The translations under genes were made by a program, and so were the position numbers. From a virus (Duplodnaviria > Caudoviricetes): DNA of 64,000 nucleotides. Every line of letters begins with the position of its first letter. The stretch's first letter is position 1. The notes under the pieces are model-generated. The model did not search any database. It saw only the letters and a program-made list of their open reading frames with translations, and was not told where the DNA came from. This document shows, piece by piece, positions 19,040 through 36,008 of this stretch. The DNA lies in the IMG/VR virus record IMGVR_UViG_3300029288_004108, positions 13,651-77,650 of that record; one strand, written 5' to 3'.

Positions 19040-19040
19040 A

Positions 19041-19451: not shown

Positions 19452-19828
19452 TCGAAACTTTTAACTGCATATATTGATGCTGCTTTCAAACCGGTCTTTG
19501 CAATTAACCCTGATGGATCAAGAGCAAGTAGGAGTTGTCCGTAGGGGGTAGATTCAAAACCTTTCCCCCACTGTCCGGCGTACTTTATCCTTGCATCTCC
19601 GATCTGCTCCTCCATAGCAACCCGGGAAGTCGTACTGGCTATGATGTGAGCAACATAACAGGCTTGAATCTTTGCAAGTAAAGTATCACTGATTGTCCCG
19701 GTATAATATTCATATACCTTTGTAAGTATCAAATCGACTGTTTCCAATAAAACATTGACATAACCTTCACCAAGACTTGAGTCCTGCATCAGATCAGCTA
19801 CATCATCTGTTGTTGCTAATACGGCCAT
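19448..19828 (-). CDS. Head-tail adaptor/connector protein
   Basis: ATTDDV..., EEQIGDARIKY, STPYGQLLLALD pattern; first neck gene. Confidence 0.7.
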   Translation of the reverse strand: MAVLATTDDVADLMQDSSLGEGYVNVLLETVDLILTKVYEYYTGTISDTLLAKIQACYVAHIIASTTSRVAMEEQIGDARIKYAGQWGKGFESTPYGQLLLALDPSGLIAKTGLKAASIYAVKSFE

Positions 19829-20528
19829 ATTTTACCTCCTTTTCTTTCTTACGTGTTGTTTCCAATAATGGATCAATATAATTGAATACTGATGGCTTCC
19901 ATCGCAGTCGGAGCCAATCGAGTGTTTCATACAACTGGGAATAATCTCCATAAACTAATCTCTCAGGATACACTACTTTACAATCCAGTCCTTCCGTGAT
20001 CATCTCCACAAACCGCTTTTCATATTCATGAACCAACCATAACCACCCTTCCTTCTCAGACGAAATCCCTACGGCTTTCCTTTTATCGGGATCCTTGAAG
20101 GCTTGCATATATCCTGTCTTTTGACAAGATTCCACTATATCTGCTGTTCTCCTGCGAACGATTACCCATTTAGCATGAGGGTAGGCTGAGTGCCATACAG
20201 CCCAAATGAGAGCTGCTCTACTGCTTTTATAAAACCATTCCCCTTTTTCATATCCTTCTCTTTCAAATATCTCATCTACAGAATCCTTCCAGGTAAGTGG
20301 AATTTTTATATGTTGTTTATCCGGTAGTGGGTATTGTCCCATTTCATCAGCCCAAATACTTGCAAGGTAAGGTTTTTCAAGTACCTCCTTTATAGCATCA
20401 TTTTCATTTACCCCTTTATACCCGGACATACTTCCACCAAATGCTCCACAACGATTTATCACTCCTGCAATCATGGAAGCTCCTGATCGTGGGACACCTG
20501 TAACTATTATTGGAGGACGTTCTATCAT
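19803..20528 (-). CDS. Sulfotransferase-like P-loop protein
   Basis: IIVTGVPRSGASMI (5'-PSB-like loop); VIVRRRTADIVES (3'-PB-like). Confidence 0.7.
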   Translation of the reverse strand: MIERPPIIVTGVPRSGASMIAGVINRCGAFGGSMSGYKGVNENDAIKEVLEKPYLASIWADEMGQYPLPDKQHIKIPLTWKDSVDEIFEREGYEKGEWFYKSSRAALIWAVWHSAYPHAKWVIVRRRTADIVESCQKTGYMQAFKDPDKRKAVGISSEKEGWLWLVHEYEKRFVEMITEGLDCKVVYPERLVYGDYSQLYETLDWLRLRWKPSVFNYIDPLLETTRKKEKEVKYGRISNNR

Positions 20529-21790
20529 GCTCTGTATTTATTTCGCACCATTACTCTTTCTGCCATTTTTTCACTATCCGGAACAACCCGGACTTTCTGC
20601 TGAGGATGTCGGCGATAGTGAGCAAGTATTGACGGACAATACCCCAGTTTCAATCCTGCTTTGAAACAACGTAGACTAAATTCATACTCCTCCATTGTGT
20701 TTAATGACTCGTCAAATGTACCTATTTTTTCAAATACTTCCTTACGATACATTAAAGTTGCTGAATGAATATAATTCTTTACAAGCATATCACGAAGTGT
20801 GGGATGCTCTATTTTAGGTTTATATAATATCCGATCAGACTTATATGAATAAAATTCCTCTGCCCACCCATGAATAAAATCAGCTCCGGTGCTTTCAAAA
20901 GTCCTGATGGAATCCTCAATACAGTTTGGAGAGAGCATATCATCTTCATGTAAATAACGAATGTAATCTCCTTCCGCCTGTGGGAGGACTTTATTAAAGT
21001 TTGCCGGCCAATTTCCACTACCCTGTCCAAGTAATAACTGAACACCTTTCGGCACACTGTCAATAGCATCCTGGAGCCATCCTCTGTCCACTTTGTAGGG
21101 AATAATTACAGTTACTAACCTGTTGAAGAACACTCTTTGTTGCACGTAGTGATTTACCCAATCTAAACCTATTGCCTGTAATATACGGGGTTTCCCGTGG
21201 AAACAGATAAGATTGGCTCCGTGGGGGATGCTATCTAACAGTTGCCTGCTCCTTGGTTTAAAATCATATATGGTGTTTGTAATGTTTTGCCAAAATAAAT
21301 CTGCTTGTATAACTGTCCGTAAATAAGTATCCATACGCTTCCCCGTAGGAGCTTTGAAGGATTGCCAAACCTTCTTTATCTTCTCCGATTCGGCAGGGAA
21401 CCAAACCAAACCAGTAGCCAACTGCCCTACCTGCCAAAAGTCTTGGAGTGTAATAAACTTTTTACGATCAGGAATGATATCAATAAGGCGTTCCAGAGAG
21501 TTGATTACAGCGGTATCTAAATCAATGTAAAGGAACGGTCGGTATTGTTCCATTGCAGGAGAGTAGAGTTCCATACGAGACCATGTACCGGGGAGAGTAG
21601 TCTGTAAAGGAATTACTTCAAATCCCTGCAGGTCATAATGAGTAGAGGCTTTATCCCACATGCAGATAATTCGTGGACGAACAGGAGATTGCCATTTTCC
21701 ATTAATGTGTCGGGCAATCAGCTGGACATCTCCCATCGAGAAATCTCCTCCTGAACGTAATACAAGCATTATGGTTTCTCTCTTTTTCAT
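20525..21790 (-). CDS. Bifunctional glycosyltransferase (GT8-like N-domain + GT2 C-domain)
   Basis: N-domain: WSRMELY, FLYIDLD, CFHGKP. C-domain: VTVIIPY, YLHEDD, EEYEFSLR. Confidence 0.82.
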   Translation of the reverse strand: MKKRETIMLVLRSGGDFSMGDVQLIARHINGKWQSPVRPRIICMWDKASTHYDLQGFEVIPLQTTLPGTWSRMELYSPAMEQYRPFLYIDLDTAVINSLERLIDIIPDRKKFITLQDFWQVGQLATGLVWFPAESEKIKKVWQSFKAPTGKRMDTYLRTVIQADLFWQNITNTIYDFKPRSRQLLDSIPHGANLICFHGKPRILQAIGLDWVNHYVQQRVFFNRLVTVIIPYKVDRGWLQDAIDSVPKGVQLLLGQGSGNWPANFNKVLPQAEGDYIRYLHEDDMLSPNCIEDSIRTFESTGADFIHGWAEEFYSYKSDRILYKPKIEHPTLRDMLVKNYIHSATLMYRKEVFEKIGTFDESLNTMEEYEFSLRCFKAGLKLGYCPSILAHYRRHPQQKVRVVPDSEKMAERVMVRNKYRA

Positions 21791-22614
21791 ATCTTCCCCA
21801 GTAAATCCGTTACAGCATGCTCAAGTTGTTCTTTTGGATTAAGCCATGTTTTGGAAAGCAGATAATTCTTTTCCATTGCTATCTTTGCTTTCCGGTAATC
21901 GTCCGGAGTCAACTGATTACATACTTCCACAATCTCCTCTATATTATTAACCCTGATCATACCAGCAGGATCAAAATACTGCTCAATATTTGAACAACCA
22001 TAATATATTGGAAGAGTATGTGATTGGAAACAATCCAAAAGCTTTTCTGAAAAGTAATTCCGGATTGACGTATTTTCAATAGCTATATGGAACATTGAAT
22101 CAAACAATGGTTCCTTTGATGCTCCCAGTATCAATTCCCCTTCATAATTTACTTCTGTCCACGGGACAAAGGTATGCCAAAACTTAGCATTTCCACTCAG
22201 ATAAAATCTCTTTGGAACTGTTATCCTATCACGATTCTTCCAAACCTGATGACGCAATTCATACCCTTCCATCTTAGAATCACTCTTCCCACCAACAACA
22301 GTAGATACTGAGAAATGCTTCCGTGGAGATTTGTAATTGATTACCCACGGTTTTGTCATATGAAATTTTATAGCCTTTAAATTAGACTTGAGTAGCTCGT
22401 TATGAAAAGTAAACAGATAAGAATAATATTCCGGATGCTTCTTTACCAATCTGTATAATAGACCTTTTCTTGGTTCTTCCAATACCTGAATACGGATATT
22501 TCCACGCTGTACTCTCGAACGGTTCAATTCATCTATGTAAACATCCACATCCTTGTCTGAGTAAACCTCAAACGGGACGGGATTATTACCATAGTGAAAT
22601 CTTACCTTTTTCAT
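21787..22614 (-). CDS. GT10-like (alpha-1,3-fucosyltransferase family) glycosyltransferase
   Basis: FHIAIENTSIRNYFSEKLLDCFQSHTLPIYYG GT10 motif. Confidence 0.78.
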   Translation of the reverse strand: MKKVRFHYGNNPVPFEVYSDKDVDVYIDELNRSRVQRGNIRIQVLEEPRKGLLYRLVKKHPEYYSYLFTFHNELLKSNLKAIKFHMTKPWVINYKSPRKHFSVSTVVGGKSDSKMEGYELRHQVWKNRDRITVPKRFYLSGNAKFWHTFVPWTEVNYEGELILGASKEPLFDSMFHIAIENTSIRNYFSEKLLDCFQSHTLPIYYGCSNIEQYFDPAGMIRVNNIEEIVEVCNQLTPDDYRKAKIAMEKNYLLSKTWLNPKEQLEHAVTDLLGKI

Positions 22615-23105
22615 ACCTTTGCTACTAATACATCTTTTTCAACATAACCATCTTCCAAATAAAACTGATATGCCTGATTGATCTTTGTTATTTTGTGTCG
22701 GAGAATATCGGTATTGAATCCACATTTTTCCTTTTTCCAGTCCCTGAGATCATCAATCAGGAGAGTGTGAGTCTTAACAGGATGGTTCCGAATAATTTCC
22801 AATTCCTGAAGTAAAGGAGATTTTCCATTTCCTTTGTGAGCATCAAGCCAGAAAGTAACAGGTTCTTCTATATATCTTAATAACACTCCCAGCACTTTTA
22901 CTGTATCTCCAAGAAGTAGATGGACATCCGGGTGATCCTTAAATCTTTCCTGGCAGTGATTATATCTCTCAGGGTCTATCTCAATAGAGTAAACAATCTC
23001 AAACCCTTCATCCAGTGCCTGTTGAATCCCATCGCCATAATTGGAACCGGTCTCAACAAAAACCCTATTTAAGTATTTTCCAAATAATCCCTTAGTCGCT
23101 GACAT
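22611..23105 (-). CDS. Class I SAM-dependent methyltransferase-like protein
   Basis: FVETGSNYGDG motif I, VYSIEID, FWLDAH, LIDD. Confidence 0.65.
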   Translation of the reverse strand: MSATKGLFGKYLNRVFVETGSNYGDGIQQALDEGFEIVYSIEIDPERYNHCQERFKDHPDVHLLLGDTVKVLGVLLRYIEEPVTFWLDAHKGNGKSPLLQELEIIRNHPVKTHTLLIDDLRDWKKEKCGFNTDILRHKITKINQAYQFYLEDGYVEKDVLVAKV

Positions 23106-23910
23106 AACTCCTTATTTTATCTTTCCAATAATTAAAAGTTAATTTCTCCTTATCCCATTTTCCTTTCTTATACAATTCCCATATATTATCAAGAATTTCT
23201 TTTGTAACCTCTTCCCATTCACTTACGTATACTATAGGTAAATCATTATAAAACCATGTATTAATACCTTTCTTTACAATCGGTATAGCTCCCATGTAGA
23301 GTGTTTCCCAAAGGCGGTGAGTATCTATACCATTTCCATCAGGACAGAATACATATTTATGATTGTAAATATTATTCAAATATTCATCAAATCCTACTCC
23401 ATTAACTCCATGGAAAGATGTAACCCAAGGTTCTTTTTCAAACAAATCATACAACGGCTGTCGTTCCTTTGGATTGGTTTTTACATTGGAATTAAGATAT
23501 ACAAGATTCTTGTATTTCCTTGGTATTTTCAACCAAGCTTCCATCTTCTCTTTCTTCCGGATATTCTTAAACCACTTATCATTTTCCAACCCTATTGGGA
23601 TCGACTCTACCTTAGGATTAGTAGTATTTACATTTTGAGTAAACCAATGAATAACATTATCCGGAACCTGGAAAGAATCATCTATATTTACATCACAATT
23701 ATGAGTAACAATAACAAACTCACACTTTAATCCTTTGATTTCCTCAAACAGCTGACGGACATACATTGTATGAGTATAAACAATATTCCTTTCCTTTAAA
23801 GCACAAGGACAATAAGTATTTTCCAAAGGGTTGCAATCTTTAACTCCCTTTGGATAGTAAACAAGATCAGCTACCCCTACAAATTTTTCTCCTGTAATCC
23901 AATCCATCAT
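23092..23910 (-). CDS. Exostosin-like GT47 glycosyltransferase
   Basis: KYVFCPDGNGIDTHRLWETLYMGAIPIV motif. Confidence 0.75.
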   Translation of the reverse strand: MMDWITGEKFVGVADLVYYPKGVKDCNPLENTYCPCALKERNIVYTHTMYVRQLFEEIKGLKCEFVIVTHNCDVNIDDSFQVPDNVIHWFTQNVNTTNPKVESIPIGLENDKWFKNIRKKEKMEAWLKIPRKYKNLVYLNSNVKTNPKERQPLYDLFEKEPWVTSFHGVNGVGFDEYLNNIYNHKYVFCPDGNGIDTHRLWETLYMGAIPIVKKGINTWFYNDLPIVYVSEWEEVTKEILDNIWELYKKGKWDKEKLTFNYWKDKIRSYVSD

Positions 23911-24569
23911 GTTACCCGTTTACGATTTTTAAACAAACAATTTGTTAATCCTTCTTTACGGTTTCCCAATAAACCACTCCCAATGAGTAAATCAAATCCA
24001 TGTTTATCAAGATACTGTTTTACCTCTGCAAATAAATGGTCACCAGTATAATAATGTTCAAACACTACTTCCGTGATTATATATTGTACAGTAGATAGGT
24101 AATCTCCCAAACCTTCGAACACTTCTATTTCCACTCCTTGTACATCCATGCAAAGGAGATTGATCCTGTCCAGTCTGACCTGTCGCATAAATGTATCCAG
24201 TCGGGTAGCTTCAACAAGAGTCTTTCTTTGGAAAAATTCATTTTGATTGTCCCTATGCCAAAGTAAAGAAGAAGCTCCAATATTTTTATCTACACTCCTT
24301 TCCATATCAGTTGGAAAGAAATCCACCATTCCATCCAGATTGTAAACAGCTTTTTCAACAAGGGTAATAAATGGATTATGTTGCAGATTTTGTTTGCAGA
24401 GAGCGATGGATTCCGGATTACATTCAAACGTGTATAATTTTTCAGGATGATAATATTTCCAAAGCTCAACCGTATCCAACCCATCCCTGCTACCACATTC
24501 AATAATCGTTCTTACCCTCTCAGGATTTATCCGGTTTAAGAATTTTCTATTTAAGTATGAACTATTCAT
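23907..24569 (-). CDS. FkbM-family methyltransferase
   Basis: IIECGSRDGLD, YTFECNP, LLCMDVQGVEIEVFEG. Confidence 0.85.
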   Translation of the reverse strand: MNSSYLNRKFLNRINPERVRTIIECGSRDGLDTVELWKYYHPEKLYTFECNPESIALCKQNLQHNPFITLVEKAVYNLDGMVDFFPTDMERSVDKNIGASSLLWHRDNQNEFFQRKTLVEATRLDTFMRQVRLDRINLLCMDVQGVEIEVFEGLGDYLSTVQYIITEVVFEHYYTGDHLFAEVKQYLDKHGFDLLIGSGLLGNRKEGLTNCLFKNRKRVT

Positions 24570-25455
24570 TACTCATGTATAAGTGAAGATTCTTTGAATG
24601 AATATGTAAATTATTAATCTTTACATCTTTGCAATCATACCTGAAGTAAGGGACTTTCCTTCCGTCTCCATTTTTCCAAATAACAGTATAATCCAGATGT
24701 GCCCTAAGTAATTGTCCGATGTAATGATCTTCTGGTTTTACTCCCGGAATACCATCAGGAGTTCCCCCAACATACTGCCCCCACGAAGCCGGATCAAATA
24801 TTGATTGAAATTTATCAAAACCAACAGAGCACTCCGCAAATGGTAATGTAGGTAATGGAACCATCAAACCCGGGTATTCTTTGGTATATACCCTCATCAG
24901 GGTCATTTCATTTACCATATCCATTCCATAACGACGACGGATTTCCCGGACTTTATATTGATGTAATAGTCCAAGAATGAAAGTAGTCATGTGAGAAAGT
25001 GCTTTCGGATTTTTAATAAACATCATTCCTGTCATCACTTTGTCCGGACCACCGTAGGTAATAGCAAGATTTTGATAAGAATGAATAAATATAGGGTGAT
25101 AAGATTCAATATCAAAGTAAATCAGTACATCATTTTCAAAATGATAAACATCATGTAAATTCCTGGTAGTTATAAAATTTGCTATATACATTAATCTGGT
25201 AGTGGTGATTGTCCAAAAATCATTTTCCCCTCTACCATAAAGAACTTCAAAAGTATGAATATCATCCGATGTACATTCCCGTTTATCTACAACATTTATA
25301 TTATAGAGGGAGAACACCGGGTCACTCATCCAAATATGATCAGTAATGAAATAAACAGTAACGTTTGGATTAAACAAACGGAATTGCTTGAAAGTATATT
25401 TCAAATAATCCGGTAAACTTCCTCCACTATGGAACATCACGACTGTCATAACCAC
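24562..25455 (-). CDS. Putative GT-A fold glycosyltransferase
   Basis: VYHFENDVLIY (DxD-like), FDPASWGQYVGG, NLHIHSK; sits among glycosyltransferases. Confidence 0.5.
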   Translation of the reverse strand: MVMTVVMFHSGGSLPDYLKYTFKQFRLFNPNVTVYFITDHIWMSDPVFSLYNINVVDKRECTSDDIHTFEVLYGRGENDFWTITTTRLMYIANFITTRNLHDVYHFENDVLIYFDIESYHPIFIHSYQNLAITYGGPDKVMTGMMFIKNPKALSHMTTFILGLLHQYKVREIRRRYGMDMVNEMTLMRVYTKEYPGLMVPLPTLPFAECSVGFDKFQSIFDPASWGQYVGGTPDGIPGVKPEDHYIGQLLRAHLDYTVIWKNGDGRKVPYFRYDCKDVKINNLHIHSKNLHLYMSNE

Positions 25456-26183
25456 GAGTGCATTGTTAAAAGATCATTATTTGTATGACGGAAAGTTGAT
25501 ACATAATTTCTTATCTCATCATCAGTCCACCTACGTTTTTTCCAGCGATGACAAACACTTACATTTTTGTAGGTATAAGCATTAGGCCAATATTTTGATA
25601 CAAAATTACCATAAAGTTCATATTCAGAAAATCCACTTCCTTCATTCATCTGATTGATCACTTCCACACAATTATTAAAGAACTCTTCCGGAGTCATCTT
25701 CTTTTCATTGAGCAAATATTGAATCATACCCCTCTTGAAAAACATTAACTCCGATATAAATGAATGAGGATAAATCCGGTCGAGATCCAATACAGTTTTC
25801 ATCAAATGGAAATATGGAAGATGATGTTGGTCTCTCCCGAGAAAGAAACAAGGAGAAGCCGGTTCTATTTCAATCGGCTTATTTATTATTGTATCAGCAT
25901 CAACTACAAGATAATTATTTGTAGTAACCTGCTGAAAGAGTTTTATGAATTGTTGTCGATACCATCCCTGACGGGAAGTCATCTTAATCTTTGAAAAATC
26001 AAAATCAATTACTTCTTCATCCCGGTGTGTATCAGCTTCCACCCAAATATATTCCTCCGGAATTGCTACCGGAGCTATCAAATGATATTTATGAATACCC
26101 TTGATATGAAAATTAATGGATTCCAACACAAACGGAAGTTTGTTAAAATCCTTTTGGGAAACGGTTATTAATACATCAAACAT
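25446..26183 (-). CDS. DUF6492-like putative glycosyltransferase
   Basis: WYRQQFIKL, YLVVDADT, FSEYELYGNF. Confidence 0.65.
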   Translation of the reverse strand: MFDVLITVSQKDFNKLPFVLESINFHIKGIHKYHLIAPVAIPEEYIWVEADTHRDEEVIDFDFSKIKMTSRQGWYRQQFIKLFQQVTTNNYLVVDADTIINKPIEIEPASPCFFLGRDQHHLPYFHLMKTVLDLDRIYPHSFISELMFFKRGMIQYLLNEKKMTPEEFFNNCVEVINQMNEGSGFSEYELYGNFVSKYWPNAYTYKNVSVCHRWKKRRWTDDEIRNYVSTFRHTNNDLLTMHSWL

Positions 26184-27996: not shown

Positions 27997-28009
27997 AATT
28001 TCAAAAATT

Positions 28010-28031
28010 AAAAAAATTACTTGATTAGTAA
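28010..28031 (-). terminator. Weak hairpin plus U-tract after the major capsid gene
   Basis: TTACT-AATCA-AGTAA followed by a T run on the minus strand. Confidence 0.35.
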
Positions 28032-28039
28032 CTCATTTA

Positions 28040-29149
28040 TTATGCAAGATGAACAATCCCGGTCTTACCGTTCTGGTCGGAACGGATCTGAGGAACCTGG
28101 ATGGTCATCACTTTGAATTTGCTTATCATACCACCTTCGGTATTCCATTCAACGTTCTGCATAGCCATTCCCTGAACGAGGCGGACTACATCAGAAGTCA
28201 TCTGAACCATAAGGACGTTGTCATCCGGCAGGGTATCGACAACTTTGATACCTTTGATACCGTCGATCTTCATGATCCTTTCCCTGATGGTTGTTCCAGG
28301 GGTCTGAGTATCATAATCGTCATCAAGAACGGTTTCATAATCGGTCGGAATATACAACTGCCACGGACCATAGTGGTAAGCCGCAATTGAAGCTTTCTTC
28401 ATCTCCAGAACATCCTGAAGAATACCGGCAGCGGTCATTGCTGAAGCATCCCAAGGAATACTTAGGTTGACCAGGTTACGGTCAGGATGATTGATGTAAC
28501 TGTAAATCGAATTACGGCTACGGGAGTCGGTTGCTCCATAACTGTAGGTGATGTCTGTGAAGAGCATAGCTTCCAGTTTCTCAAGGATCCTACGGGCAGC
28601 TCTTTCTGCAGATGTGGTATCGAGTGGGTTCCCAAGATTCCTGCTTGCAGCAAGTACCCTTGCATTGATTTCATAATCAACATGGATTATGGGAATCGGC
28701 AGGTAGTTGTGCTGGAATACAGGACGGTCGTTATTTCCACGAGTTACACCATCCATGGTAACAACAGCCTCCATAGCATCACTTACGTCATGCCATTCAA
28801 GGACAGTTGTCCCAAGACCATTACCAAGATTATAGATCAGACCAGCTGCTCTTAAATCTTCAAAGCCACCAAGGCGCTGACGGGATACTTCCATAATGGC
28901 TGTATCCAGCTGTTTCCACTCATCGTGACGAAGAGTAGCAGTGGTGTTTGTCTGAATTGTAGCCCAGTTTTCCGGTTTCTTAGGATCTCCACCACGGTAA
29001 ACCGTCATGTAATTTCCCCAATTTCCGTTTTTATCCTGAGCCATGTACGGGCGCATACGACCAAGGTTCAGAGAACCATTGGCTGAGAGAGTATTAGCAA
29101 GAATACCTATGCCACCGTTCGGAGCGATTAAATCAACATTTACTTCCAT
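28040..29149 (-). CDS. Major capsid protein (HK97 fold, encapsulin/Linocin-M18-like type)
   Basis: TLRHDEWKQLD..., LPIPIIHVDYEINARVLAASR, YGPWQLYIP; follows the decoration gene. ATG at 29149 is preferred to TTG 29176. Confidence 0.88.
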   Translation of the reverse strand: MEVNVDLIAPNGGIGILANTLSANGSLNLGRMRPYMAQDKNGNWGNYMTVYRGGDPKKPENWATIQTNTTATLRHDEWKQLDTAIMEVSRQRLGGFEDLRAAGLIYNLGNGLGTTVLEWHDVSDAMEAVVTMDGVTRGNNDRPVFQHNYLPIPIIHVDYEINARVLAASRNLGNPLDTTSAERAARRILEKLEAMLFTDITYSYGATDSRSRNSIYSYINHPDRNLVNLSIPWDASAMTAAGILQDVLEMKKASIAAYHYGPWQLYIPTDYETVLDDDYDTQTPGTTIRERIMKIDGIKGIKVVDTLPDDNVLMVQMTSDVVRLVQGMAMQNVEWNTEGGMISKFKVMTIQVPQIRSDQNGKTGIVHLA

Positions 29150-29168
29150 TTTCTTACGGTATTTAGCA

Positions 29169-29657
29169 TTAAACAATTCTTACTTTGATCCTCTTATTGA
29201 CCCCCAGTCCACCACCTACATCCTGACCAGATGAATCAGCACTGGCATCCATCTCTTCGAGTGAAATACCTACGATGACATTGGTCTGAACATTAGCTGT
29301 AACAGATGCTTCATCTGCTGCGTGAGCAATCAGATAACCAGCACCATTGGATTCAAGTAGTGTCCCTTCAGCAACATCCTGACCATCGGCCAGAATCCCG
29401 AGAACGACATCACCAGGAGCAGGAAACCAAACCTGCACCTTATCACCAGCTGCATAGGCATCGTCAATCCCTTTGCCCTGAAGTTCATCTTCAAGAGCAA
29501 ACATTTTAGGACCAACGTTACCTCCAGCGGTAGCATGGACTTTGACTTCATTATCAGTATTAAGCTCCAGCAAACTTCCCGGAAGGATAGCTGCATCAGC
29601 TACATACTCATCAATGTTGTCAGAGTACTTTTTAATCTTAATCGTGTTGTACGACAT
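29169..29657 (-). CDS. Capsid decoration/cement protein
   Basis: ADAAILPGSLLEL, FALEDELQGKGIDDAYAAGD, ends RIKVRIV; lies between scaffold and capsid genes. Confidence 0.75.
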   Translation of the reverse strand: MSYNTIKIKKYSDNIDEYVADAAILPGSLLELNTDNEVKVHATAGGNVGPKMFALEDELQGKGIDDAYAAGDKVQVWFPAPGDVVLGILADGQDVAEGTLLESNGAGYLIAHAADEASVTANVQTNVIVGISLEEMDASADSSGQDVGGGLGVNKRIKVRIV

Positions 29658-29674
29658 TTCTTATACCTCCTTTT

Positions 29675-30151
29675 TTACTTTTTAGGTTCTACTCCAGCAG
29701 GATACAGTGGTTCTACCGTAGAGGTAGAAACATTGGTCTGGAAACCAGTGTTGAGTGAATAATCAACCACTTCTTCCTTCTTAACTGACTGAGCCAATTT
29801 TTCCAAATGAGCATCAGACATTGTTTTGAGTTCTTCATCAGTCCAAACATCTTTGGTGTTTGCCTGAATCTTTTGGATCCATCCATCTCTCCTCTCCTTC
29901 AGCTGACGCTTCCCGAAATCGAGAGCAGCCTGATCTTCAGGAGTGAGTTTATTGACCTCAACGGTCTTTGTTACCTCTTTTTCCACAACTTTCTCAACTT
30001 CAATGGGTTTAGCCATTTTATCGAGTATTGCTTCATTTAAGGTCTCCAGCATTTCCCTGTCGTCTTCAGTATATTTTCCCTGACTGTTTGCAATCAGTTC
30101 ATCTACCTTCTTTTTGACACAAGGAGTGCATTTTACAGCATTTTCTGCCAT
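29675..30151 (-). CDS. Nested in-frame scaffold protein (158 aa)
   Basis: AAAAAGGAGGTACAAGAAATG internal start at the protease/scaffold boundary. Confidence 0.55.
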   Translation of the reverse strand: MAENAVKCTPCVKKKVDELIANSQGKYTEDDREMLETLNEAILDKMAKPIEVEKVVEKEVTKTVEVNKLTPEDQAALDFGKRQLKERRDGWIQKIQANTKDVWTDEELKTMSDAHLEKLAQSVKKEEVVDYSLNTGFQTNVSTSTVEPLYPAGVEPKK

Positions 30152-30955
30152 TTCTTGTACCTCCTTTTTATTAATATTAAACATCGGTTTTGGATCATCC
30201 TCTTTATCAGAATGATCACTATTAGCTCTGATACCACAGCCATCTGCCATTGAACAAGCACCAACACTGCCGGGCAGAAGTGCTAAGTGATCTGGTCTAT
30301 GATTTCTGGCTATTGCATCATAATGCTCTCCATTCCATTCTCCCTCTGTGAAATCATCCTCAGTAAACATACCAAGACTAACTTCTAACGGTTCTCCATT
30401 CTTGATATGATTAAAGGCTTCCAGAGAAATCTCTTGTAGTTTCAAGGAGTCCAACCAAGCTTCCGCCATAAGTTTATTTCCTTCTACTCTCGTATTATAT
30501 ACTGTCCCTACTACTTGATTCTCTGCAATCAGTGGATCATTAGCAGAAACATTTACCCCATCAACTTCAGGGTGATTAATTACAACAGGTCTCCCATTCC
30601 AAGACTGAGGAATTTTTCCTAACTCTGTTATTTCATGAAGTAATGGTCCATGACTTCCATGATGAACTCCTTCTACCATCATAACAACAGGAACTATCAA
30701 ATGCTCTCTTCCTTGGTAGATCCTTTGTTTTGTCATGTACTTAGCACTCTGTTGAGTCAGGACAATGACTGTCTTACTTTCATTATCTACAACACCATTT
30801 GCCTGACGGATAGCAGAAGCAGCACAGGTTTCATCTGTCCCTCCTTTTGCAATACAAGATTGAAGAGCAGAGTTTGCTATATGGACCCATTGTTCCTTCT
30901 GTTTATCGGAAAGACCTTTTTTGTGAGATTCTACATCCTGTTTACTCCACGGCAT
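29675..30955 (-). CDS. DUF2213-like prohead protease/scaffold protein
   Basis: WNGRPVVINHP, EVSLG, RPDHLALLP..GACS..DGCG, followed by a charged helical scaffold. Confidence 0.82.
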   Translation of the reverse strand: MPWSKQDVESHKKGLSDKQKEQWVHIANSALQSCIAKGGTDETCAASAIRQANGVVDNESKTVIVLTQQSAKYMTKQRIYQGREHLIVPVVMMVEGVHHGSHGPLLHEITELGKIPQSWNGRPVVINHPEVDGVNVSANDPLIAENQVVGTVYNTRVEGNKLMAEAWLDSLKLQEISLEAFNHIKNGEPLEVSLGMFTEDDFTEGEWNGEHYDAIARNHRPDHLALLPGSVGACSMADGCGIRANSDHSDKEDDPKPMFNINKKEVQEMAENAVKCTPCVKKKVDELIANSQGKYTEDDREMLETLNEAILDKMAKPIEVEKVVEKEVTKTVEVNKLTPEDQAALDFGKRQLKERRDGWIQKIQANTKDVWTDEELKTMSDAHLEKLAQSVKKEEVVDYSLNTGFQTNVSTSTVEPLYPAGVEPKK

Positions 30956-30968
30956 CTTAATTTCCTCC

Positions 30969-31427
30969 TTATCTTTTCAGGTTTAAATATACTGGTTTTC
31001 TTGAATATATGATATCTCTCAACGAATAATTTATTTCATGTTTAATGAAAACTATGTTTTTGAACATTAGAAACATATTATCATCTCCCCCAAAATGGCT
31101 AAATCCTTCGGTTTTATAATCTCCATCTCTTCCTGATGCAACCAATATGACTGGTATATTTTCATGATCAATATAATTCCTGATACCTTCCCATGCCCGG
31201 AAGAAGAATGGAGTAATGGTATAGACTATTGGAATCTTTCCTGATAGAGCCATTCCTACTGCTATATCAACTGCCACCTGCTCGGCTGCTCCTACATTAA
31301 AGAATTGCTTTGGAAATTCCTCACTGATCTTATCAAACATTCCGTAACCCAAATCAGCTGTAATCAGGACAATGGAAGAGTCTTCTTTCATTAATTCATA
31401 CAAATCCGTTGCAAACTTCTTTCTCAT
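30969..31427 (-). CDS. Transketolase-like protein, pyrimidine-binding half (short)
   Basis: LITADLGYG, FFNVGAAEQ, GMALSG..PIVY, HFGGDD; lacks the usual C-terminal domain. Confidence 0.85.
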   Translation of the reverse strand: MRKKFATDLYELMKEDSSIVLITADLGYGMFDKISEEFPKQFFNVGAAEQVAVDIAVGMALSGKIPIVYTITPFFFRAWEGIRNYIDHENIPVILVASGRDGDYKTEGFSHFGGDDNMFLMFKNIVFIKHEINYSLRDIIYSRKPVYLNLKR

Positions 31428-32002
31428 ATCTTTACATAATGAGCAGATAAACCATCAAGTCCATACTCCTCTACATGAGTCTCTCTCACTCTGATCTGAG
31501 GCATTATGTGAACCACATTACTTATCATCTGCAAGTCTATCTTATCATAGGCGGAATAGCCATTCCAATTAAGATATATCAGCAAGTTATATACCTGATA
31601 CTTTCTAATAACATTAGCTGCTTCCCAAATGGAACCTTCTGTGCATTCTCCATCCGATACCAAACACCAAACTTTCCTTTCCCTATCAGCCAAAGCCATT
31701 CCTACTGCTATTGGAAGCCCATGACCAAGACTACCCGTAGAACAATAGATATGAAAGTATTCCTCCCTTTCAGGATGAGTTCCAAATTTCTTAAATAACC
31801 ACTCTGCATCATACTCATAGTACTTCTCCAACACTACATATAATGCTAACCCTGCATGACCAGAGGATAAGATAAAAGGTTCATCTGCTCCTTTCTCCTG
31901 ATATATCTCATCAATTATACCAACTGTCGTCAGATTACTCCCAAGGTGAGAAAGCCCGAGCCGGTGAGAAATATCAATTATCCTATCATGTAAAGCACTC
32001 AT
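31424..32002 (-). CDS. Transketolase-like protein, ThDP-binding N-half (short)
   Basis: SHLGS, FILSSGHAGLALY, STGSLGHGL, SDGECTEGSIWEA..N. Confidence 0.88.
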   Translation of the reverse strand: MSALHDRIIDISHRLGLSHLGSNLTTVGIIDEIYQEKGADEPFILSSGHAGLALYVVLEKYYEYDAEWLFKKFGTHPEREEYFHIYCSTGSLGHGLPIAVGMALADRERKVWCLVSDGECTEGSIWEAANVIRKYQVYNLLIYLNWNGYSAYDKIDLQMISNVVHIMPQIRVRETHVEEYGLDGLSAHYVKI

Positions 32003-33105
32003 ATAGAGAGAATATCTTTAATTGTATGACAAATATAAACAACCTGAGCTTGAGTTAACCGATAAGGACAAGGGAGATTAATTCCATTATCTCCAATGTG
32101 TCTGGCTACCGGATTATTAGCATTTTCAAACATTGGAAAAGAACTCATTGGTGGGAAGAATGGTCGGGAATCAATTCCTTTTTCCTTCATCTTACTCATC
32201 AACTCATCTCTCCCTACATTGAACTTATCATTCAATACAATTGACGTCATCCAGTGATTTGACCTCTCAACATATGTTGATTTCTTACTCAACCGCACCC
32301 CTTCTATTCCCCACAATTCCTGATCATACCAATTATAAATAAGGTGTTTCTTTGCAAGTAATTCCTCTATCCTCTCCAGTTGAGCCAGTCCCCAAGCTGC
32401 CTGCAGGTTAGACATTTTATATTTATAACCAATATCACTTATATGAAATCCTGATCCGGAACGACCATGCTCGGAGTAATGATGAATCTTTTCAAACAAC
32501 TCATCATTATCTGTAACAATCATTCCACCTTCTCCGGTAGATAGCAATTTTGCTCCTTGGAAACTGAAACAACCAATATCACCAAAACTCCCTGTCCGGT
32601 GATGATCAATTTCAGCTCCTATGGACGGGGCAGCATCCTCCACGATCTTCAATCCATAAGTGTGAGCAATATGGAGTAATGGAATCATATCTGAAGGATG
32701 CCCATAATTATGAACAGGAATAATAGCTTTTGTATTTTTGGTAATCAATCTTTCTACACTCACCGGGTCTATACACCAGGTATCCTTTCTTACATCAGCA
32801 AATACCGGACGGGCTCCTACATATCGGACAACACTTGCCGTAGCTATCCACGATGTATCAGGAACAATGACTTCATCTCCTTCTTTTATTCCAAGAGCAA
32901 TCAAAGCTAAATGTAATGCTCCAGTACAGGAAGAAGTGGTTTTTGCATGTTTTACTCCAATATATTTTGCAAATGCTTCTTCAAACCTCTTAATGTAATC
33001 ACCCCAGTGATCTTCATGACCATTGGTAATAGCATCAGTAACATAACCAATTTCCTTCTGTGTTATGGAAGGACCAGCAGTTAATATCATTTTCTTTACT
33101 GACAT
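31999..33105 (-). CDS. DegT/DnrJ/EryC1/StrS sugar aminotransferase (perosamine synthase-like)
   Basis: SSCTGALHLAL, IVEDAAPS, SFQGAKLLSTGEGG (PLP Lys), GYKYKMSN. Confidence 0.92.
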   Translation of the reverse strand: MSVKKMILTAGPSITQKEIGYVTDAITNGHEDHWGDYIKRFEEAFAKYIGVKHAKTTSSCTGALHLALIALGIKEGDEVIVPDTSWIATASVVRYVGARPVFADVRKDTWCIDPVSVERLITKNTKAIIPVHNYGHPSDMIPLLHIAHTYGLKIVEDAAPSIGAEIDHHRTGSFGDIGCFSFQGAKLLSTGEGGMIVTDNDELFEKIHHYSEHGRSGSGFHISDIGYKYKMSNLQAAWGLAQLERIEELLAKKHLIYNWYDQELWGIEGVRLSKKSTYVERSNHWMTSIVLNDKFNVGRDELMSKMKEKGIDSRPFFPPMSSFPMFENANNPVARHIGDNGINLPCPYRLTQAQVVYICHTIKDILSI

Positions 33106-33767
33106 AGCTCCATTACAATATACGACTTTTCAGATCGACGTTCCTCATGCTCGTCCAGAGGAATCCACTCGATCATACCATCATGTTCTACTCTATATAA
33201 TGGTATCTGATTGACTTCCTTAAATCCTAATCTCTCATAGAAAGTAATTGCATGAGGATTATCAGACAAAACTTTTAAATAAAATTCTTTAATCTTTAAT
33301 CCCGTCCGCCCATAATTTATAAGGGTATTCACTGCATAAGACATCATACCTTTATATACATTCTTAACTCCACGCACTACATTATCTATTTCTACTGAGG
33401 GAATATCATAATTGAAAGAAGAATAACCAATATGACCAATAGGGAGGGCATCAGCTGTATGTGGATGAATCATAAATAAAAGACGATCCTTCCTTGGTAG
33501 TAAAACATTGTCTATCCAATTCATTGTTTGCTCCTCTGTCCCCTTAAATCTATTTGCAAAACCAATAGAATTTTCCTCTCTCCACTGTTTTATCAATGGT
33601 ATATAATTAGGATATAATATTTGTTTATATAGATACGTGATTGGTTTAAGATCACCTATAATCTCCTTTTTGGAATTCAAAATAGGAAGATAATGCCAAT
33701 GATATTCCTTTTGTCCAAAATTTTTGAACGTATCAAATGTTTGCTCTATGAATGATTTATATTCCAT
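33096..33767 (-). CDS. GNAT-family N-acetyltransferase
   Basis: IGHIG, EIDNVVRG...KGMM, LKVLSDNPHAITFYERLGF. Confidence 0.8.
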   Translation of the reverse strand: MEYKSFIEQTFDTFKNFGQKEYHWHYLPILNSKKEIIGDLKPITYLYKQILYPNYIPLIKQWREENSIGFANRFKGTEEQTMNWIDNVLLPRKDRLLFMIHPHTADALPIGHIGYSSFNYDIPSVEIDNVVRGVKNVYKGMMSYAVNTLINYGRTGLKIKEFYLKVLSDNPHAITFYERLGFKEVNQIPLYRVEHDGMIEWIPLDEHEERRSEKSYIVMELCQ

Positions 33768-35041
33768 TGTTTGATTACATTATAAATATATTCAAATACA
33801 GGTTCCTCATAATGAGGAGCACAACCTAAGAAAAACACTTTATCCAGTACCTGATTTGCTTCCGGATAATCATTACAATCTGATAACCAGTAGTAACCAG
33901 GGTGGAGAAGTATATTGCCTGAAAAATAATTACGAGTCTGAATTTTATTTTGCTCAAGGAACTGAACCAATTCTTGCTTTAATTCCTTTGTCTCACAGAT
34001 AAATGGAACTCCAAACCAACACACATCAGATTTTTCAAATTGTTGAACACTTTTTACTCCTTCTATATTACTTGTCAGAATTGGTTCAATTATATATTTT
34101 GAACGCTTTCTTCTCCGATCAATTTCATCAAACTTTTCTAACTGTACTCTCCCAATAGCTCCTTGAAGATCCAGTGGTTTAAGGTTATACCCCATCTGAG
34201 AAAATACATATTTATGATCAACCACTCCATCATAAGCCTCCAGCCACTTTCCAAATCTCCTTCCACAAGAACCATCTTTCAACATATTAGCTTCCCCGAC
34301 ACAAGTACAATCTCTTCCCCACCAAGCTATACTCCGCATTATCCTCATCAAATCAATATCATCCGTGCTAACCATACCCCCTTCTCCGGTACAAATATGG
34401 TGAGCAGGATAAAATGAACAACTGGAAGCCACAGCATATTCATTGAGATACCTTCCATCCCAACGACTGCCTAAGCTATCACACCCATCCAGTATTAGCT
34501 TAATATCATGCCGGCGGCATATTTCCATTAATCTATCCATATCTGGAGGATTTCCAAGGACTGGAGAAACAATAATAGCCTTAACCCAGTCATACATTCT
34601 TTCTGCAACCCTGTCCAAATCAAAATTTAATGTGTCCCATTCAATATCAGCAAATACAGGAGTTAGGTTATTCTGTACAATAACAGATACGGTAGTAGGG
34701 AAACCTACAGGGGAAACAATAATTCCATCATCCGCTTTCCATCCATAATATTGTTTGAGAGCAGTTAACATAACCAGGTTGGCAGATGATCCGGAATTAA
34801 CCATGAGAGAATGCTTAACATTAAACTTATGACTAAATTCCTTTTCAAATGCATCTACATTTTCTCCAGCCGTGATCCATGAACCATTCAAAAATGTATT
34901 TATTGCAGCAATAGCTTCCCTACTATCCCAATATGGACCGGAATACGGAATGAGTGTTTCTCCGGGAACAAAATGCTTTCCATATAGATATGGAGGAACG
35001 TGGTTCCCAACAATACTTGTTATTTTACTCAAATCAATCAT
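33746..35041 (-). CDS. rfbH: RfbH/E1-type CDP-4-keto-6-deoxyglucose 3-dehydrase
   Basis: SFYPAHHICTGEGG (His in place of the PLP Lys), GRDCTC...GSCG Fe-S motif, YDHKYVFS-like segment. Confidence 0.85.
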   Translation of the reverse strand: MIDLSKITSIVGNHVPPYLYGKHFVPGETLIPYSGPYWDSREAIAAINTFLNGSWITAGENVDAFEKEFSHKFNVKHSLMVNSGSSANLVMLTALKQYYGWKADDGIIVSPVGFPTTVSVIVQNNLTPVFADIEWDTLNFDLDRVAERMYDWVKAIIVSPVLGNPPDMDRLMEICRRHDIKLILDGCDSLGSRWDGRYLNEYAVASSCSFYPAHHICTGEGGMVSTDDIDLMRIMRSIAWWGRDCTCVGEANMLKDGSCGRRFGKWLEAYDGVVDHKYVFSQMGYNLKPLDLQGAIGRVQLEKFDEIDRRRKRSKYIIEPILTSNIEGVKSVQQFEKSDVCWFGVPFICETKELKQELVQFLEQNKIQTRNYFSGNILLHPGYYWLSDCNDYPEANQVLDKVFFLGCAPHYEEPVFEYIYNVIKQWNINHS

Positions 35042-35769
35042 AATTCCTCCAATTCAGGATACGATGATTTAGCTACCCAAAATTTCCTTTCTCTCAAGCA
35101 AGCTCCTTTATCTTTCAAGTAATTTGCATGAGCAATAGGGTTTTGATCATTATAAACATAAAGTACCTTATCAATAAATCGCATGTGCTTTTGACCACAC
35201 ATTTCAATCATTGGGTATAACATAGTACAATCAAATGAGTTATTCGGATAATTCCCATTTGAATAAAGCAAATCCTCTTTCTTTATAGCATCAAATAACT
35301 TCTTTCGACAAGTAACCAAATGTGAAGCAAACCAATTTCCACTTCTCCGGTATAATTGGGTGTCCAAGATTGGAAAACATCCTTTACCATGTAATCCGCT
35401 TGTCCGTATAAAATTTCCATAAGTCAACCATATTTCTTTTTGATATACTTCATTCAGATACTCCAGAACATCATCCGAGTAAAGATAATCATCACCACTC
35501 AGGAATGCAATTACATCTTCCCTATCGGTAGCCATCAGATTTATTCCTGCTATAAAATTTGCAATATGATAAGGTTGTTTTGGAGTATGTATGGCTTGAA
35601 ATAAGGAATATTCTTTTTGAATTATTTCCCACGTCCCGTCATCACTATCATCATCCATTATAATAACCTCATAATTCTTATAGGTCTGCATCAGAACAGA
35701 ATCCAGACATTTCCTTATGTAAGGAGCTGCATTACGCTGGGTGACTAATATGATAAATCTGTTAAGCAT
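35038..35769 (-). CDS. GT2-family glycosyltransferase
   Basis: RNAAPYIRKCLDSVLMQTYKNYEVIIMDDDSDDGT, FLSGDD; ATG at 35769. Confidence 0.88.
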   Translation of the reverse strand: MLNRFIILVTQRNAAPYIRKCLDSVLMQTYKNYEVIIMDDDSDDGTWEIIQKEYSLFQAIHTPKQPYHIANFIAGINLMATDREDVIAFLSGDDYLYSDDVLEYLNEVYQKEIWLTYGNFIRTSGLHGKGCFPILDTQLYRRSGNWFASHLVTCRKKLFDAIKKEDLLYSNGNYPNNSFDCTMLYPMIEMCGQKHMRFIDKVLYVYNDQNPIAHANYLKDKGACLRERKFWVAKSSYPELEEL

Positions 35770-36007: not shown

Positions 36008-36008
36008 A

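Follow-up and report, generated by a model that had tools for sequence, protein, structure and literature searches.

Why do soluble glycan enzymes lie within the capsid-and-neck operon of an uncultured phage from sludge/landfill, and what would they modify? The window (the whole stretch of DNA analysed, 64,000 nt) contains 16 glycan/sulfate ORFs on the minus strand, in two blocks at 19803-27655 and 30969-35769, which alternate with genes for the portal, MuF-like protein, protease, decoration protein, capsid and neck. A sequence-only reading of the same DNA had counted about 15 glycan genes in two blocks among head and neck genes, in agreement with these ORF calls. The first block comprises 10 contiguous ORFs. 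The second (block B) has six, with a called span of 30969-35835; the ATG at 35769, where the sequence-only reading had ended this block, is likely to be the true start of its GT2 gene.

Layout of the island within the late operon

The structural genes of the operon share the minus strand with the island. The portal gene (36934-38445; phrog_146, 3.5e-64) and a gene for a MuF/SPP1 gp7-like head morphogenesis protein (36009-37049; phrog_758, 8e-28) lie 5′ of block B. Between the blocks are genes for a prohead protease/scaffold protein with DUF2213 (29675-30955; PF09979, 8.4e-10; phrog_760/530), a head decoration protein (29169-29657; phrog_766, 3.1e-14), the HK97-fold major capsid protein with DUF6260 (28040-29176; PF19774, 1.4e-19; phrog_771) and a 114-aa protein (27652-27996) that has no family match and in alignment shows two domains joined by a poly-Pro linker. 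Neck/adaptor genes and the gene for the major tail protein (tail tube) follow at 17598-19828 (phrog_5, phrog_2595, phrog_158). Throughout the run between MuF-like gene and tail tube, neighbouring genes either overlap by 4-26 nt or are separated by no more than 43 nt, and nearly all island ORFs are coupled via overlapping stop/start codons, as expected from the earlier description of late-strand genes with overlapping ends. A scan for promoter- and terminator-like sites gave a count not above that in shuffled sequence, with none in the few intergenic gaps.

This arrangement was recovered in independent sludge and digester runs, in contigs spanning 18000-30166 at roughly 96-98% identity (estimated from listed differences), and the synteny survey found the same layout in 53 IMG/VR relatives; it is therefore no assembly artefact. 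RNA-library contigs cover the genes for capsid, decoration protein and protease, and 234 nt of the Maf-like gene described below; as DNA carry-over is possible, they lend the virion-modification reading weak support from expression.

No glycan ORF contains a hydrophobic 19-mer with a Kyte-Doolittle mean of at least 1.6. In the whole 77,650-bp record the tape measure is the only polytopic membrane protein (at least three TM-like segments), and a Bac_transf initiating transferase was not found. The absence of TM helices from the glycan genes, and of membrane export genes, thus withstood the check.

Two conserved anchors and the genes between and beyond them

The block at 19803-27655 is bounded by two genes that we call anchors. 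The first (26942-27655; phrog_4603, 1.9e-32) encodes a Maf/GT42 sialyltransferase-like (MptE-like) protein. Its AF2 model (pLDDT 93.8) is structurally most similar to the catalytic domain of the flagellin O-glycosyltransferase Maf (5mu5; Z 14.7 over 192 aa, rmsd 3.6), with the GT42 sialyltransferases Cst-I/II next (Z 11-12). The MptE pyrophosphokinase shares the Maf-like fold (Z 10.4), so the fold does not fix the substrate. In an alignment of 28 orthologues (32-69% identity) GGGxS, N63, D79 and GFD158 are invariant and H168, H170 and H194 nearly so; these residues (a nucleotide-binding-like GGGxS, Asp/Asn and His) speak for catalytic activity. Fusions of this domain to GT2, TupA ATP-grasp and methyltransferase domains recur, which points to a glycan-metabolism enzyme. 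PF01973 matches 22 of the 28 orthologues; the Pfam matches of both anchors lie below gathering thresholds (18.3 versus 34.6 bits and 20 versus 27 bits). We propose, from the modelled fold, that the first anchor may be an initiating protein glycosyltransferase. Maf and GT42 enzymes use CMP-nonulosonate donors. Neither NeuB nor a CMP-sugar synthetase was found in the phage; if a CMP-nonulosonate is used it would therefore be host-made, and otherwise the donor is a different one.

The second anchor, the last gene of the cassette (19803-20528), encodes a predicted PAPS-type sulfotransferase with invariant PRSG and RRRTxD...S motifs in the alignment. The top matches of its AF2 model (pLDDT 91.1) are human TPST1/2 (Z 15.2-15.8; best over 193 aa, rmsd 3.3). 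The next class scores about 2 Z lower, with a curacin sulfotransferase at 13.7 and heparan 3-OST at 11-12. The modelled fold is thus nearest to tyrosylprotein sulfotransferases, and the sulfate acceptor may be protein rather than glycan. The sulfated glycan of the sequence-only reading is accordingly not established. No tyrosine column tracks the presence of the sulfotransferase.

Family support was obtained for 13 of the 16 island ORFs. Between the anchors lie genes for a GT11 protein of the alpha-1,2-fucosyltransferase family (26176-26955; PF01531, 1.2e-21), an FkbM-family methyltransferase (23907-24569; PF05050, 1.4e-17; TIGR01444, 4.7e-19, above cut-off), a GT10 protein of the alpha-1,3/4-fucosyltransferase family (C-terminal domain; 21787-22614; PF00852, 8.8e-7, 29.2 bits versus a cut-off of 23.9) and a protein with a GT2 domain in its C-terminal half (20525-21790; PF13632, 2e-8; PF00535, 4.4e-7). 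Matches below cut-off (PF24785, 2.1e-5; PF03016, 1.7e-3) weakly suggest a GT47/RXYLT1-like putative glycosyltransferase at 23092-23910. The three ORFs outside the supported set are also here. One (25446-26183) is DUF6492-like, with PF20102 at 1.6e-4, below cut-off; PF20102 matches six of 17 proteins scanned (best 4.2e-6), which we take to be this ORF and five orthologues. The 297-aa product of 24562-25455 has no match in Pfam or PDB; its Atlas features are nearest to PF03407/DUF6492 clusters (0.91-0.92, few features being shared), a lead to a possible GT-A nucleotide-sugar transferase. The 164-aa product of 22611-23105 had no match in family searches.

Block B encodes a GT2 glycosyltransferase (35038-35835; PF00535, 2.4e-19), an RfbH/E1-like PLP/PMP sugar 3-dehydrase of the DegT family (33746-35041; PF01041, 8e-71; NF011936 RfbH, 9.4e-105, 351 bits, below the cut-off of 423), a GNAT N-acyltransferase (33096-33767; PF13302, 4.6e-8; weak PseH match), a LegC/PseC-like sugar aminotransferase (31999-33105; PF01041, 4e-111; TIGR04181, 2.6e-92, below cut-off) and a transketolase-like ThDP enzyme (30969-32002; PF00456, 1.2e-8; PF02779, 3.7e-17) split into an N half (31424-32002) and a pyrimidine-binding half (30969-31427). 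A possible source of its precursor is an extended-SDR NDP-sugar 4,6-dehydratase/epimerase-like enzyme encoded on the plus strand in the replication module (59527-60477; PF01370, 2.9e-48), whose top NCBIfam matches, to LegB and dTDP-glucose dehydratase, all fall well short of the cut-off. With this dehydratase-like SDR so far off, no NeuB or CMP-sugar synthetase, and no nucleotidyltransferase among annotated genes, the pathway is incomplete, contrary to the near-complete one first described, and the donor sugars would therefore come from the host.

Conservation and turnover among relatives

The survey covered 37 capsid clusters, 23 of them with a complete capsid-to-neck interval, whose length ranges from 306 to 9734 bp. 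The Maf-like anchor is present in 22 of the 23 intervals and the TPST-like anchor in 17. The 114-aa protein, kept in 17, travels with the Maf-like gene. Nearly every gene exchanged between the anchors encodes a glycan enzyme; represented are GT2, GT32 and Caps_synth, along with methyltransferases, NDP-sugar dehydratases, formyltransferase and radical SAM. Block B occurs in a minority of relatives only, and in two (L011 and L013) a homing endonuclease lies within it. The capsid/neck and MuF/protease sites are clearly insertion hot spots. A further variable island is found between terminase and portal.

The nearest cultured capsid relatives are without the island, which is thus an insertion. Cultured Pseudomonas D3-like phages have a reduced version: a Maf-like homologue directly after the capsid gene in PMG1 or among the neck genes in PAJU2 (ORF010, labelled ‘structural protein’ by its depositors), and a cluster of methyltransferase genes within the neck region. 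The host of the present phage is probably a member of the Bacteroidales with variable capsules.

What the island would modify

We favour, with a probability of about 60%, a phage-encoded cytoplasmic system that would modify the phage's own virion proteins in late assembly, carried by a variable island at a fixed capsid/neck site. The modelled likeness of the anchors to protein modifiers fits virion proteins better than LPS or capsule as the target. The earlier proposal that a glycan is built on assembling particles retains the support of soluble, late, coupled genes and protein-modifier-like anchors; the particle glycan itself we infer from the genes, along with its acceptors, donors, order of steps and product on particles.

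A different target, which we consider fairly unlikely, is the host envelope. The late soluble enzymes would act on undecaprenyl-linked O-antigen/capsule intermediates in a Bacteroidales-like host, which would itself supply the initiating transferase, flippase and polymerase, and the changed surface would block superinfection or re-adsorption of progeny to debris. Undecaprenyl-linked host glycans are the usual target of soluble glycosyltransferases of the island families, and O-antigen/capsule-type glycosyltransferases are normally soluble, without TM helices, so that the absence of such helices is by itself compatible with these targets. GT2, GT10, GT11, GT32, Caps_synth, RfbH and DegT are typical families of O-antigen/capsule loci, and the variable capsules of the probable host agree with a role at its surface. 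Benler et al. gave the same reading to a kinase-ATPase-GT cluster lying between portal and capsid genes in Bacteroides-infecting ‘Gratiaviridae’ (PMC8008677). Against it, neither conserved anchor is closest to a polysaccharide-locus enzyme: one is nearest to a flagellin glycosyltransferase, the other to a protein tyrosine sulfotransferase. The translational coupling to head/neck genes, with promoter-like sites at shuffled background, tells against it too, the fixed capsid-adjacent site in 22 of 23 lineages is hard to square with a host-surface role, and a new polymer in the final minutes of the lytic cycle would seem a poor investment.

It is improbable that the first anchor is a structural or assembly protein with a non-catalytic GT42-like fold and the other genes ‘morons’ that share no target and pile up at a recombination-tolerant site. 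The depositors' label in PAJU2, the hot spots with their homing endonuclease and the second variable island would suit such a history; however, the GGGxS, Asp/Asn and His residues are kept across the divergent orthologues, the domain fusions noted above recur, and the inserted genes are nearly all glycan enzymes rather than a random mix.

We know of no DNA glycan with RfbH, ThDP enzyme, aminotransferase or sulfotransferase chemistry. That sugars are put on modified genome bases before packaging, for restriction evasion, is very improbable, since no base-hydroxymethylating enzymes adjoin the island among annotated genes and both the head/neck placement and the protein-modifier-like anchors are a misfit, although phage glycosyltransferases reportedly decorate DNA with diverse glycans (work attributed to Pyle et al. 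2024).

Under the virion-protein reading, the Maf/GT42-like enzyme would put the first sugar on exposed Ser/Thr, possibly in acidic, Ser/Gly-rich segments (loops or tails) of the decoration protein, the neck proteins and the tail tube. The decoration protein has such a loop at residues ~135-150 (...DASADSSGQD...), a candidate acceptor by its sequence; alignments show an insertion, SSDSSGS, in the neck protein neck136 (19041-19451) and a Ser/Thr/Gly-rich C-terminal tail on the major tail protein (17598-18032). DSSG occurs four times versus 0.33 expected and is confined to virion proteins. The sole relative without the Maf-like gene (L034), a single case, has the Ser-rich loop of its decoration protein deleted. 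In the cassette-less relatives MaInes and Hardycor1 this position is occupied by a short D-x-S-G-G turn, so this ‘sequon’ is partly ancestral structure. The glycan would then be extended by the GT11, GT10, GT47-like and GT2 enzymes, possibly with the DUF6492-like and 297-aa proteins, and capped by the FkbM methyltransferase; the TPST-like enzyme would sulfate the glycan or virion-protein tyrosines directly. Block B and the distant SDR dehydratase may convert a host NDP-hexose into a rare deoxy, branched, N-acylated amino sugar, for transfer by the block B GT2.

The system had been thought unusual; its layout is instead no one-off but standard in a large uncultured lineage, and a reduced form of it extends to cultured D3-like phages.

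Glycan genes within the late operon

The IMG/VR source record, rated complete by CheckV, is 77,650 bp long, and the window is its bases 13651–77650. A megablast search with window positions 19000–38500 gave no match to cultured phages, none of which is close at the DNA level; near-identical sequence is present in runs from landfill, sludge, anaerobic-digester, bioreactor and wastewater metagenomes. The host is probably a Bacteroidales bacterium, since two Bacteroidales MAG contigs carry capsid relatives and two small ORFs upstream of the portal gene (38423–39218, minus strand; 153 and 110 aa) have Bacteroidota-style signal peptides (MKKLLALLIILLFPVVLMAQ...). The products of these ORFs, encoded in the late operon, are predicted to be secreted proteins or lipoproteins.

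On the minus strand, the late operon extends from the terminase genes (47404–49402) as far as the tail genes (about 8300). Along it are encoded, all on this strand, the portal (36934–38445), a MuF/gp7-like protein (36009–37049), a DUF2213 protease/scaffold (29675–30955), a decoration protein (29169–29657), an HK97-fold capsid protein (28040–29176), neck and adaptor proteins (18072–19828), the tail tube (17598–18032) and the tape measure (13228–16710).

Glycan genes had been reported by the sequence-only reading in two blocks interleaved with the head and neck genes, and this arrangement was borne out: we found 16 genes, of which 13 are supported by family or fold matches. Block B (30969–35769, minus strand), between the MuF-like gene and the protease, encodes a GT2 glycosyltransferase, an RfbH/E1-like 3-dehydrase (351 bits to the RfbH equivalog, whose cut-off is 423), a GNAT protein, a LegC/PseC-like aminotransferase and a transketolase-like ThDP enzyme split into two ORFs. 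Block A (19803–27655, minus strand) encodes an MptE-like protein (26942–27655, hereafter the Maf-like gene or anchor 1), a GT11 enzyme, a DUF6492-like protein (25446–26183), a 297-aa protein (24562–25455), an FkbM methyltransferase, a weak GT47/RXYLT1-like match, a 164-aa protein (22611–23105), GT10 and GT2 enzymes, and a protein with a weak Sulfotransfer_3 match (19803–20528, the TPST-like gene or anchor 2). The 297-aa and 164-aa proteins have no family assignment; for these two and the DUF6492-like protein, a profile search against PDB sequences returned noise only, and a lenient Pfam scan added DUF6492 alone. Genes meet in overlaps of 4–26 nt or small gaps, and the arrangement of block A is reproduced in independent assemblies from other studies.

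It had also been claimed that the glycan ORFs have no TM helices and that membrane genes of the Gtr, flippase or polymerase type are absent. Both statements held: TM-like segments occur in none of the glycan ORFs, and the tape measure is the record's only ORF with at least three of them. The 77.65-kb record contains no match to PF02397 (Bac_transf), the initiating phosphoglycosyltransferase family, and neither NeuB nor a CMP-sugar synthetase (CTP_transf_3). With the Pfam TGT model, no DpdA was detected in the record. For the CDP-3,6-dideoxyhexose pathway, no E3 reductase, cytidylyltransferase or CDP-glucose dehydratase equivalog was identified. A generic match to an extended-SDR NDP-sugar dehydratase/epimerase lies among helicase and primase genes (59527–60477, plus strand), apart from the late glycan blocks and on the opposite strand; it is possibly expressed earlier.

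A scan for promoters and terminators, which used a sigma-70 consensus not used by Bacteroidota, gave nothing above shuffled sequence. An anaerobic-digester RNA library (run X20) has contigs over the capsid, decoration and protease genes and one neck gene, and covers a 234-nt piece of the Maf-like gene; most of the cassette has no contig, which is not evidence of silence. Patchiness of this kind is more in keeping with transcripts than with carried-over DNA, though contigs neither prove transcription nor show its timing.

Elsewhere in the operon, an insert of about 9 kb (39215–47400, minus strand) separates the large terminase and portal genes, which lie side by side in most relatives (e.g. loci L019 and L021). 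The insert carries a GIY-YIG homing endonuclease, a tyrosine recombinase, a peptidase-like gene, several small single-TM ORFs and a gene for a 669-aa protein with a C-terminal 5-bladed-propeller glycoside-hydrolase-like domain (GH130/32/43 matches); it resembles another variable island, or else a mobile element within the late operon. Within the protease/scaffold gene, 468 nt of positions 30166–30950 are skipped in two sequencing runs (X5 and X6) and replaced by 801 other letters in contigs otherwise ~97% identical, which points to a variable segment within the scaffold region.

Two anchor genes and their candidate substrates

The AF2 model of anchor 1 (26942–27655, minus strand) has a pLDDT of 93.8, and a structure search with it recovered the GT42/Maf catalytic-domain fold. 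The top-ranking structure is the catalytic domain of Maf, a flagellin O-glycosyltransferase (5mu5, Z 14.7 over 192 aa, rmsd 3.6), followed by the GT42 sialyltransferases Cst-I/II (Z 11–12, residues 1–237), MptE kinase (Z 10.4) and GT29 sialyltransferases (~9); the next unrelated class falls below Z 5. Against PF01973 the protein scores 18.3 bits (gathering cut-off 34.6), and 22 of 28 orthologues match that family at E<=0.01, the best at 2.7e-8. It is a member of phrog_4603 (1.9e-32), labelled 'alpha-2,3-sialyltransferase' in PHROGs. Aligned orthologues conserve GGGxS, invariant Asn and Asp residues (including D158), H168, H170 and H194.

The Maf-like family comprises 7,091 clusters (50% identity) at E<=1e-3. 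Because many of its members are fused to GT2, TupA ATP-grasp or methyltransferase domains, the Maf-like domain belongs to glycan assembly and not to pterin metabolism. Giant fusions of up to 1,215 aa (proteins P0122, P0174, P0193, P0206 and P0240) place the Maf-like domain at the N-terminus and carry GT2, TupA-like ATP-grasp or SAM methyltransferase domains after it. Within the lineage, fusions occur at loci L049 (976 aa), L043 (430 aa) and L032 (763 aa), and locus L040 has two Maf-like paralogues in tandem. Were the donor of the Maf-like enzyme a CMP-nonulosonate, it could come from the host; alternatively, the donor could differ. A complex prediction from alignments of the enzyme and the decoration protein gave no answer (score 0.01) and was counted neither way.

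Between the capsid gene and block A lies a conserved ORF for a 114-aa protein (27652–27996, minus strand) without family, in which a variable, Pro-rich linker joins an N-terminal part with the motif RWKKxGGG...IIKPG to a C-terminal domain that is conserved. The gene is duplicated in locus L027 and truncated in locus L034. Possible roles of its product are those of adaptor, carrier or acceptor.

Anchor 2 (19803–20528, minus strand; pLDDT 91) has a predicted sulfotransferase fold, whose closest class in a structure search is human TPST1/2 (Z 15.2–15.8), with lower matches to a polyketide (curacin) sulfotransferase (Z 13.7), a mycobacterial one (12.9) and heparan-sulfate enzymes (3-OST, 11–12). 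TPST1/2 is thus the nearest fold, yet identity is only 19%, and the PF13469 score of 20 bits lies below the gathering cut-off of 27. Under what we take to be the definitions of the two cofactor motifs, the alignment has an invariant 5′-PSB P-loop, P6...T10 G11...R14 S15 G16 (PRSG), and an invariant 3′-PB motif, R125 R126 R127 T128 D130 ... S134 (RRRTxD...S). The P-loop of the window protein has Arg (PRSG), as in TPST and in RaxST, a bacterial tyrosylprotein sulfotransferase, and not the Lys of carbohydrate sulfotransferases. Its substrate could equally be a glycan or a tyrosine.

The capsid protein (28040–29176) has at residues ~276–290 a conserved, highly acidic tyrosine stretch (...PTDYETVLDDDYD..., including ...DDDYD...) resembling the classical context of tyrosine sulfation. 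Relatives keep this stretch with or without the sulfotransferase, and no Tyr column convincingly tracked the presence of that gene, in a comparison whose groups are imperfect (the gene was missed in loci L002 and L036) and confounded by phylogeny.

Several virion proteins have loops or tails rich in Ser and Gly, which are no more than suggestive as candidate acceptors. In the decoration protein (29169–29657) an acidic Ser/Gly-rich loop just before the last strand has the consensus ...D[LM]S[GD]SSGx[ED]SS... (DASADSSGQD in the window). Its length varies among relatives, and it is deleted in locus L034, the sole relative without a Maf-like gene, a single case. A similar insertion, SSG[ED]SSG, occurs in the neck protein (19041–19451) of the window and several relatives, and DSSG is found four times in the proteome against 0.33 expected, in virion proteins only. 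At the end of the tail-tube protein (17598–18032), nearly all relatives have a tail rich in Ser, Thr and Gly, which recalls the glycosylation of mycobacteriophage capsid and tail-tube subunits at their C-termini, as reported in PMC12619734.

Fixed sites and a variable middle

We identified 53 IMG/VR loci with capsid proteins 57–73% identical to that of the window, forming 37 clusters. The interval from capsid to neck is complete in 23 of the 37 and measures 306 to 9,734 bp (median 6.2 kb). Of the complete intervals, 22 hold the Maf-like gene, every time near the capsid end, and 17 the TPST-like gene, every time at the neck end. Genes between the anchors change with the lineage and are, by Pfam, almost all glycan enzymes: glycosyltransferases (GT2, GT32, Caps_synth and TcdA/B-type), several methyltransferase classes, NDP-sugar dehydratases/epimerases, UDP-GlcNAc 2-epimerase, formyltransferase, C-methyltransferase and radical SAM proteins. 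Block B was found in 4 of the 30 clusters with a readable site between the MuF-like gene and the protease, and 16 of the 30 have essentially no spacer there. In the nearest cultured capsid relatives, Brevundimonas phage MaInes and Halorubrum phage Hardycor1, the capsid gene is followed directly by neck genes; these cassette-less phages also have a short D-x-S-G-G turn at the position of the decoration-protein loop, a caveat to reading that loop as an acceptor.

Because interval contents vary, block B is rare and the cultured relatives are without the island, the islands are insertions particular to lineages. Their sites are fixed hot spots; the two anchors are conserved, and the middle changes fast. 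GIY-YIG homing endonucleases recur, in loci L011 and L013 (7211–7525, between block B and the protease) and in the window at 46609–47400 and 63297–63998; the copies in L011 and L013 fit the block B/protease junction being a hot spot of recombination or insertion.

Homologues of anchor 1 also occur in D3-like Pseudomonas phages (Detrevirus), which have a hypothetical–hypothetical–methyltransferase cluster before the tail terminator. In PAJU2 (L061/L065) the homologue lies among the neck genes (7780–8349; tblastn 6e-8 over 95%) and is labelled 'structural protein' by the depositors of the original GenBank record; in PMG1 (L062) it directly follows the major head gene (5813–6409). The orf7-type gene of D3, PMG1 and PAJU2 (phrog_4603) is thus like anchor 1 and sits in the head–neck module, but these phages have only about 3–4 such genes, no variable cassette and no sulfotransferase. 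Our literature search found no work on the function of the D3-type homologue.

Proposed function and comparison with known systems

The genomic pattern of the island is strong and widespread; its function is what we infer. We consider that blocks A and B encode a cytoplasmic virion-modification system, with a probability of roughly 0.6. The Maf-like enzyme would prime Ser/Thr residues on exposed loops and tails of virion proteins, and variable glycosyltransferases would extend the glycan, which FkbM would methylate. The TPST-like enzyme would then sulfate the glycan, or tyrosines directly, and block B, with the distant SDR (59527–60477), would supply a rare sugar. For this widespread lineage of Bacteroidales-associated phages a narrower version is tentative and rather doubtful: a 'virion serotype island' in which the Maf-like and TPST-like genes frame a rapidly exchanged cassette, giving particles with strain-specific, methylated and sulfated surfaces, perhaps with tyrosine sulfation of capsid or neck proteins.

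Remodelling of the host O-antigen or capsule is the foremost alternative, although we regard it as unlikely. Glycan ORFs without TM helices are compatible with it, and it is the proposal of Benler et al. for the 'Gratiaviridae', where a glycosyltransferase cluster lies between the portal and capsid genes (PMC8008677). Against it speak the resemblance of the anchors to protein modifiers, the fixed site beside the capsid gene and the operon coupling of the island to head and neck genes. Less likely than host remodelling are a non-catalytic structural role of anchor 1 accompanied by unrelated morons, which is improbable, and DNA glycosylation, which we consider more remote still.

Glycosylation of virions by the phage's own enzymes is an established process in mycobacteriophages. 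Mycobacteriophages Che8, Corndog and Myrna (Freeman et al. 2023, Cell Host Microbe) encode soluble glycosyltransferases, some with methyltransferases, and papers citing that work describe the enzymes as proposed or shown to glycosylate capsid and tail-tube subunits in the cytoplasm (PMC12619734, PMC11256854, PMC10877033). The window likewise encodes soluble glycosyltransferases. However, where cluster F1 mycobacteriophages are described as having few such genes, near the genome 3′ end and outside the head operon (PMC11256854), the window has 16 genes within it, including nucleotide-sugar tailoring, a Maf/GT42-like candidate initiator, a TPST-like sulfotransferase and cassette turnover across the lineage. 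The mycobacteriophages have an actinobacterial host, whereas that of the window is probably from Bacteroidales, and the window system is known from genes alone.

In the Maf flagellin system, a self-assembling structural protein has its Ser/Thr residues modified in the cytoplasm, ahead of assembly; the same logic is proposed for the window. Anchor 1 shares the fold and falls by sequence in the MptE-like/DUF115 superfamily, but is a ~230-aa catalytic core without the Maf flanking domains; its Pfam score is below threshold, and the phage lacks a nonulosonate pathway. Capsid glycosylation in chloroviruses and Mimiviridae does without membrane machinery: the virus encodes cytoplasmic glycosyltransferases, along with sugar-nucleotide enzymes and methyltransferases, which assemble an atypical glycan on its major capsid protein. 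Their logic parallels that of the window, and DUF115/MptE-like folds also occur in Mimiviridae; they differ in being eukaryotic giant viruses with dispersed genes, other GT families and glycans solved experimentally. Serotype-converting loci (Gtr, O-acetylase, Wzy-type) are phage-borne glycan enzymes too, but they encode polytopic membrane proteins expressed from prophages; the 77.65-kb record has no GtrA/B/C, Wzx, Wzy or acetylase membrane enzyme, and its glycan genes lie inside the late operon.

Our literature search found no description of a Maf-like initiator beside a phage capsid module or of a sialyltransferase/Maf-like gene in phage head modules, nor of a TPST-like sulfotransferase as second anchor, of hypervariable cassette turnover spanning a large lineage of uncultured phages, or of a link of such islands to the D3-type gene. 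To our knowledge, the only phages with demonstrated virion glycosylation are some mycobacteriophages; tyrosine sulfation, if true, would be the first we know of in any phage virion, and the serotype-island reading, if true, would give the first hypervariable particle-glycan locus that we are aware of in phages.

Phage particles are commonly regarded as bare protein. If the proposed virion modification is correct, particle glycosylation, perhaps with sulfation, would be common in an abundant lineage of uncultured phages from sludge, digesters and landfill; the genes for it would occupy a fixed hot spot and diversify in the manner of an O-antigen locus. Such diversification would imply strong selection on the appearance of the particle surface; possible selective agents are capsid-sensing defence, adsorption to debris or mucus, grazers and proteases. 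The enzymes would be of use for cytoplasmic protein glyco-engineering, and the system would be tractable in cultured D3-like Pseudomonas phages, in which the homologue beside the capsid gene has stood unexplained since the first genome annotation. The self-assembling substrates of Maf-like enzymes would then comprise flagellin and a second class.
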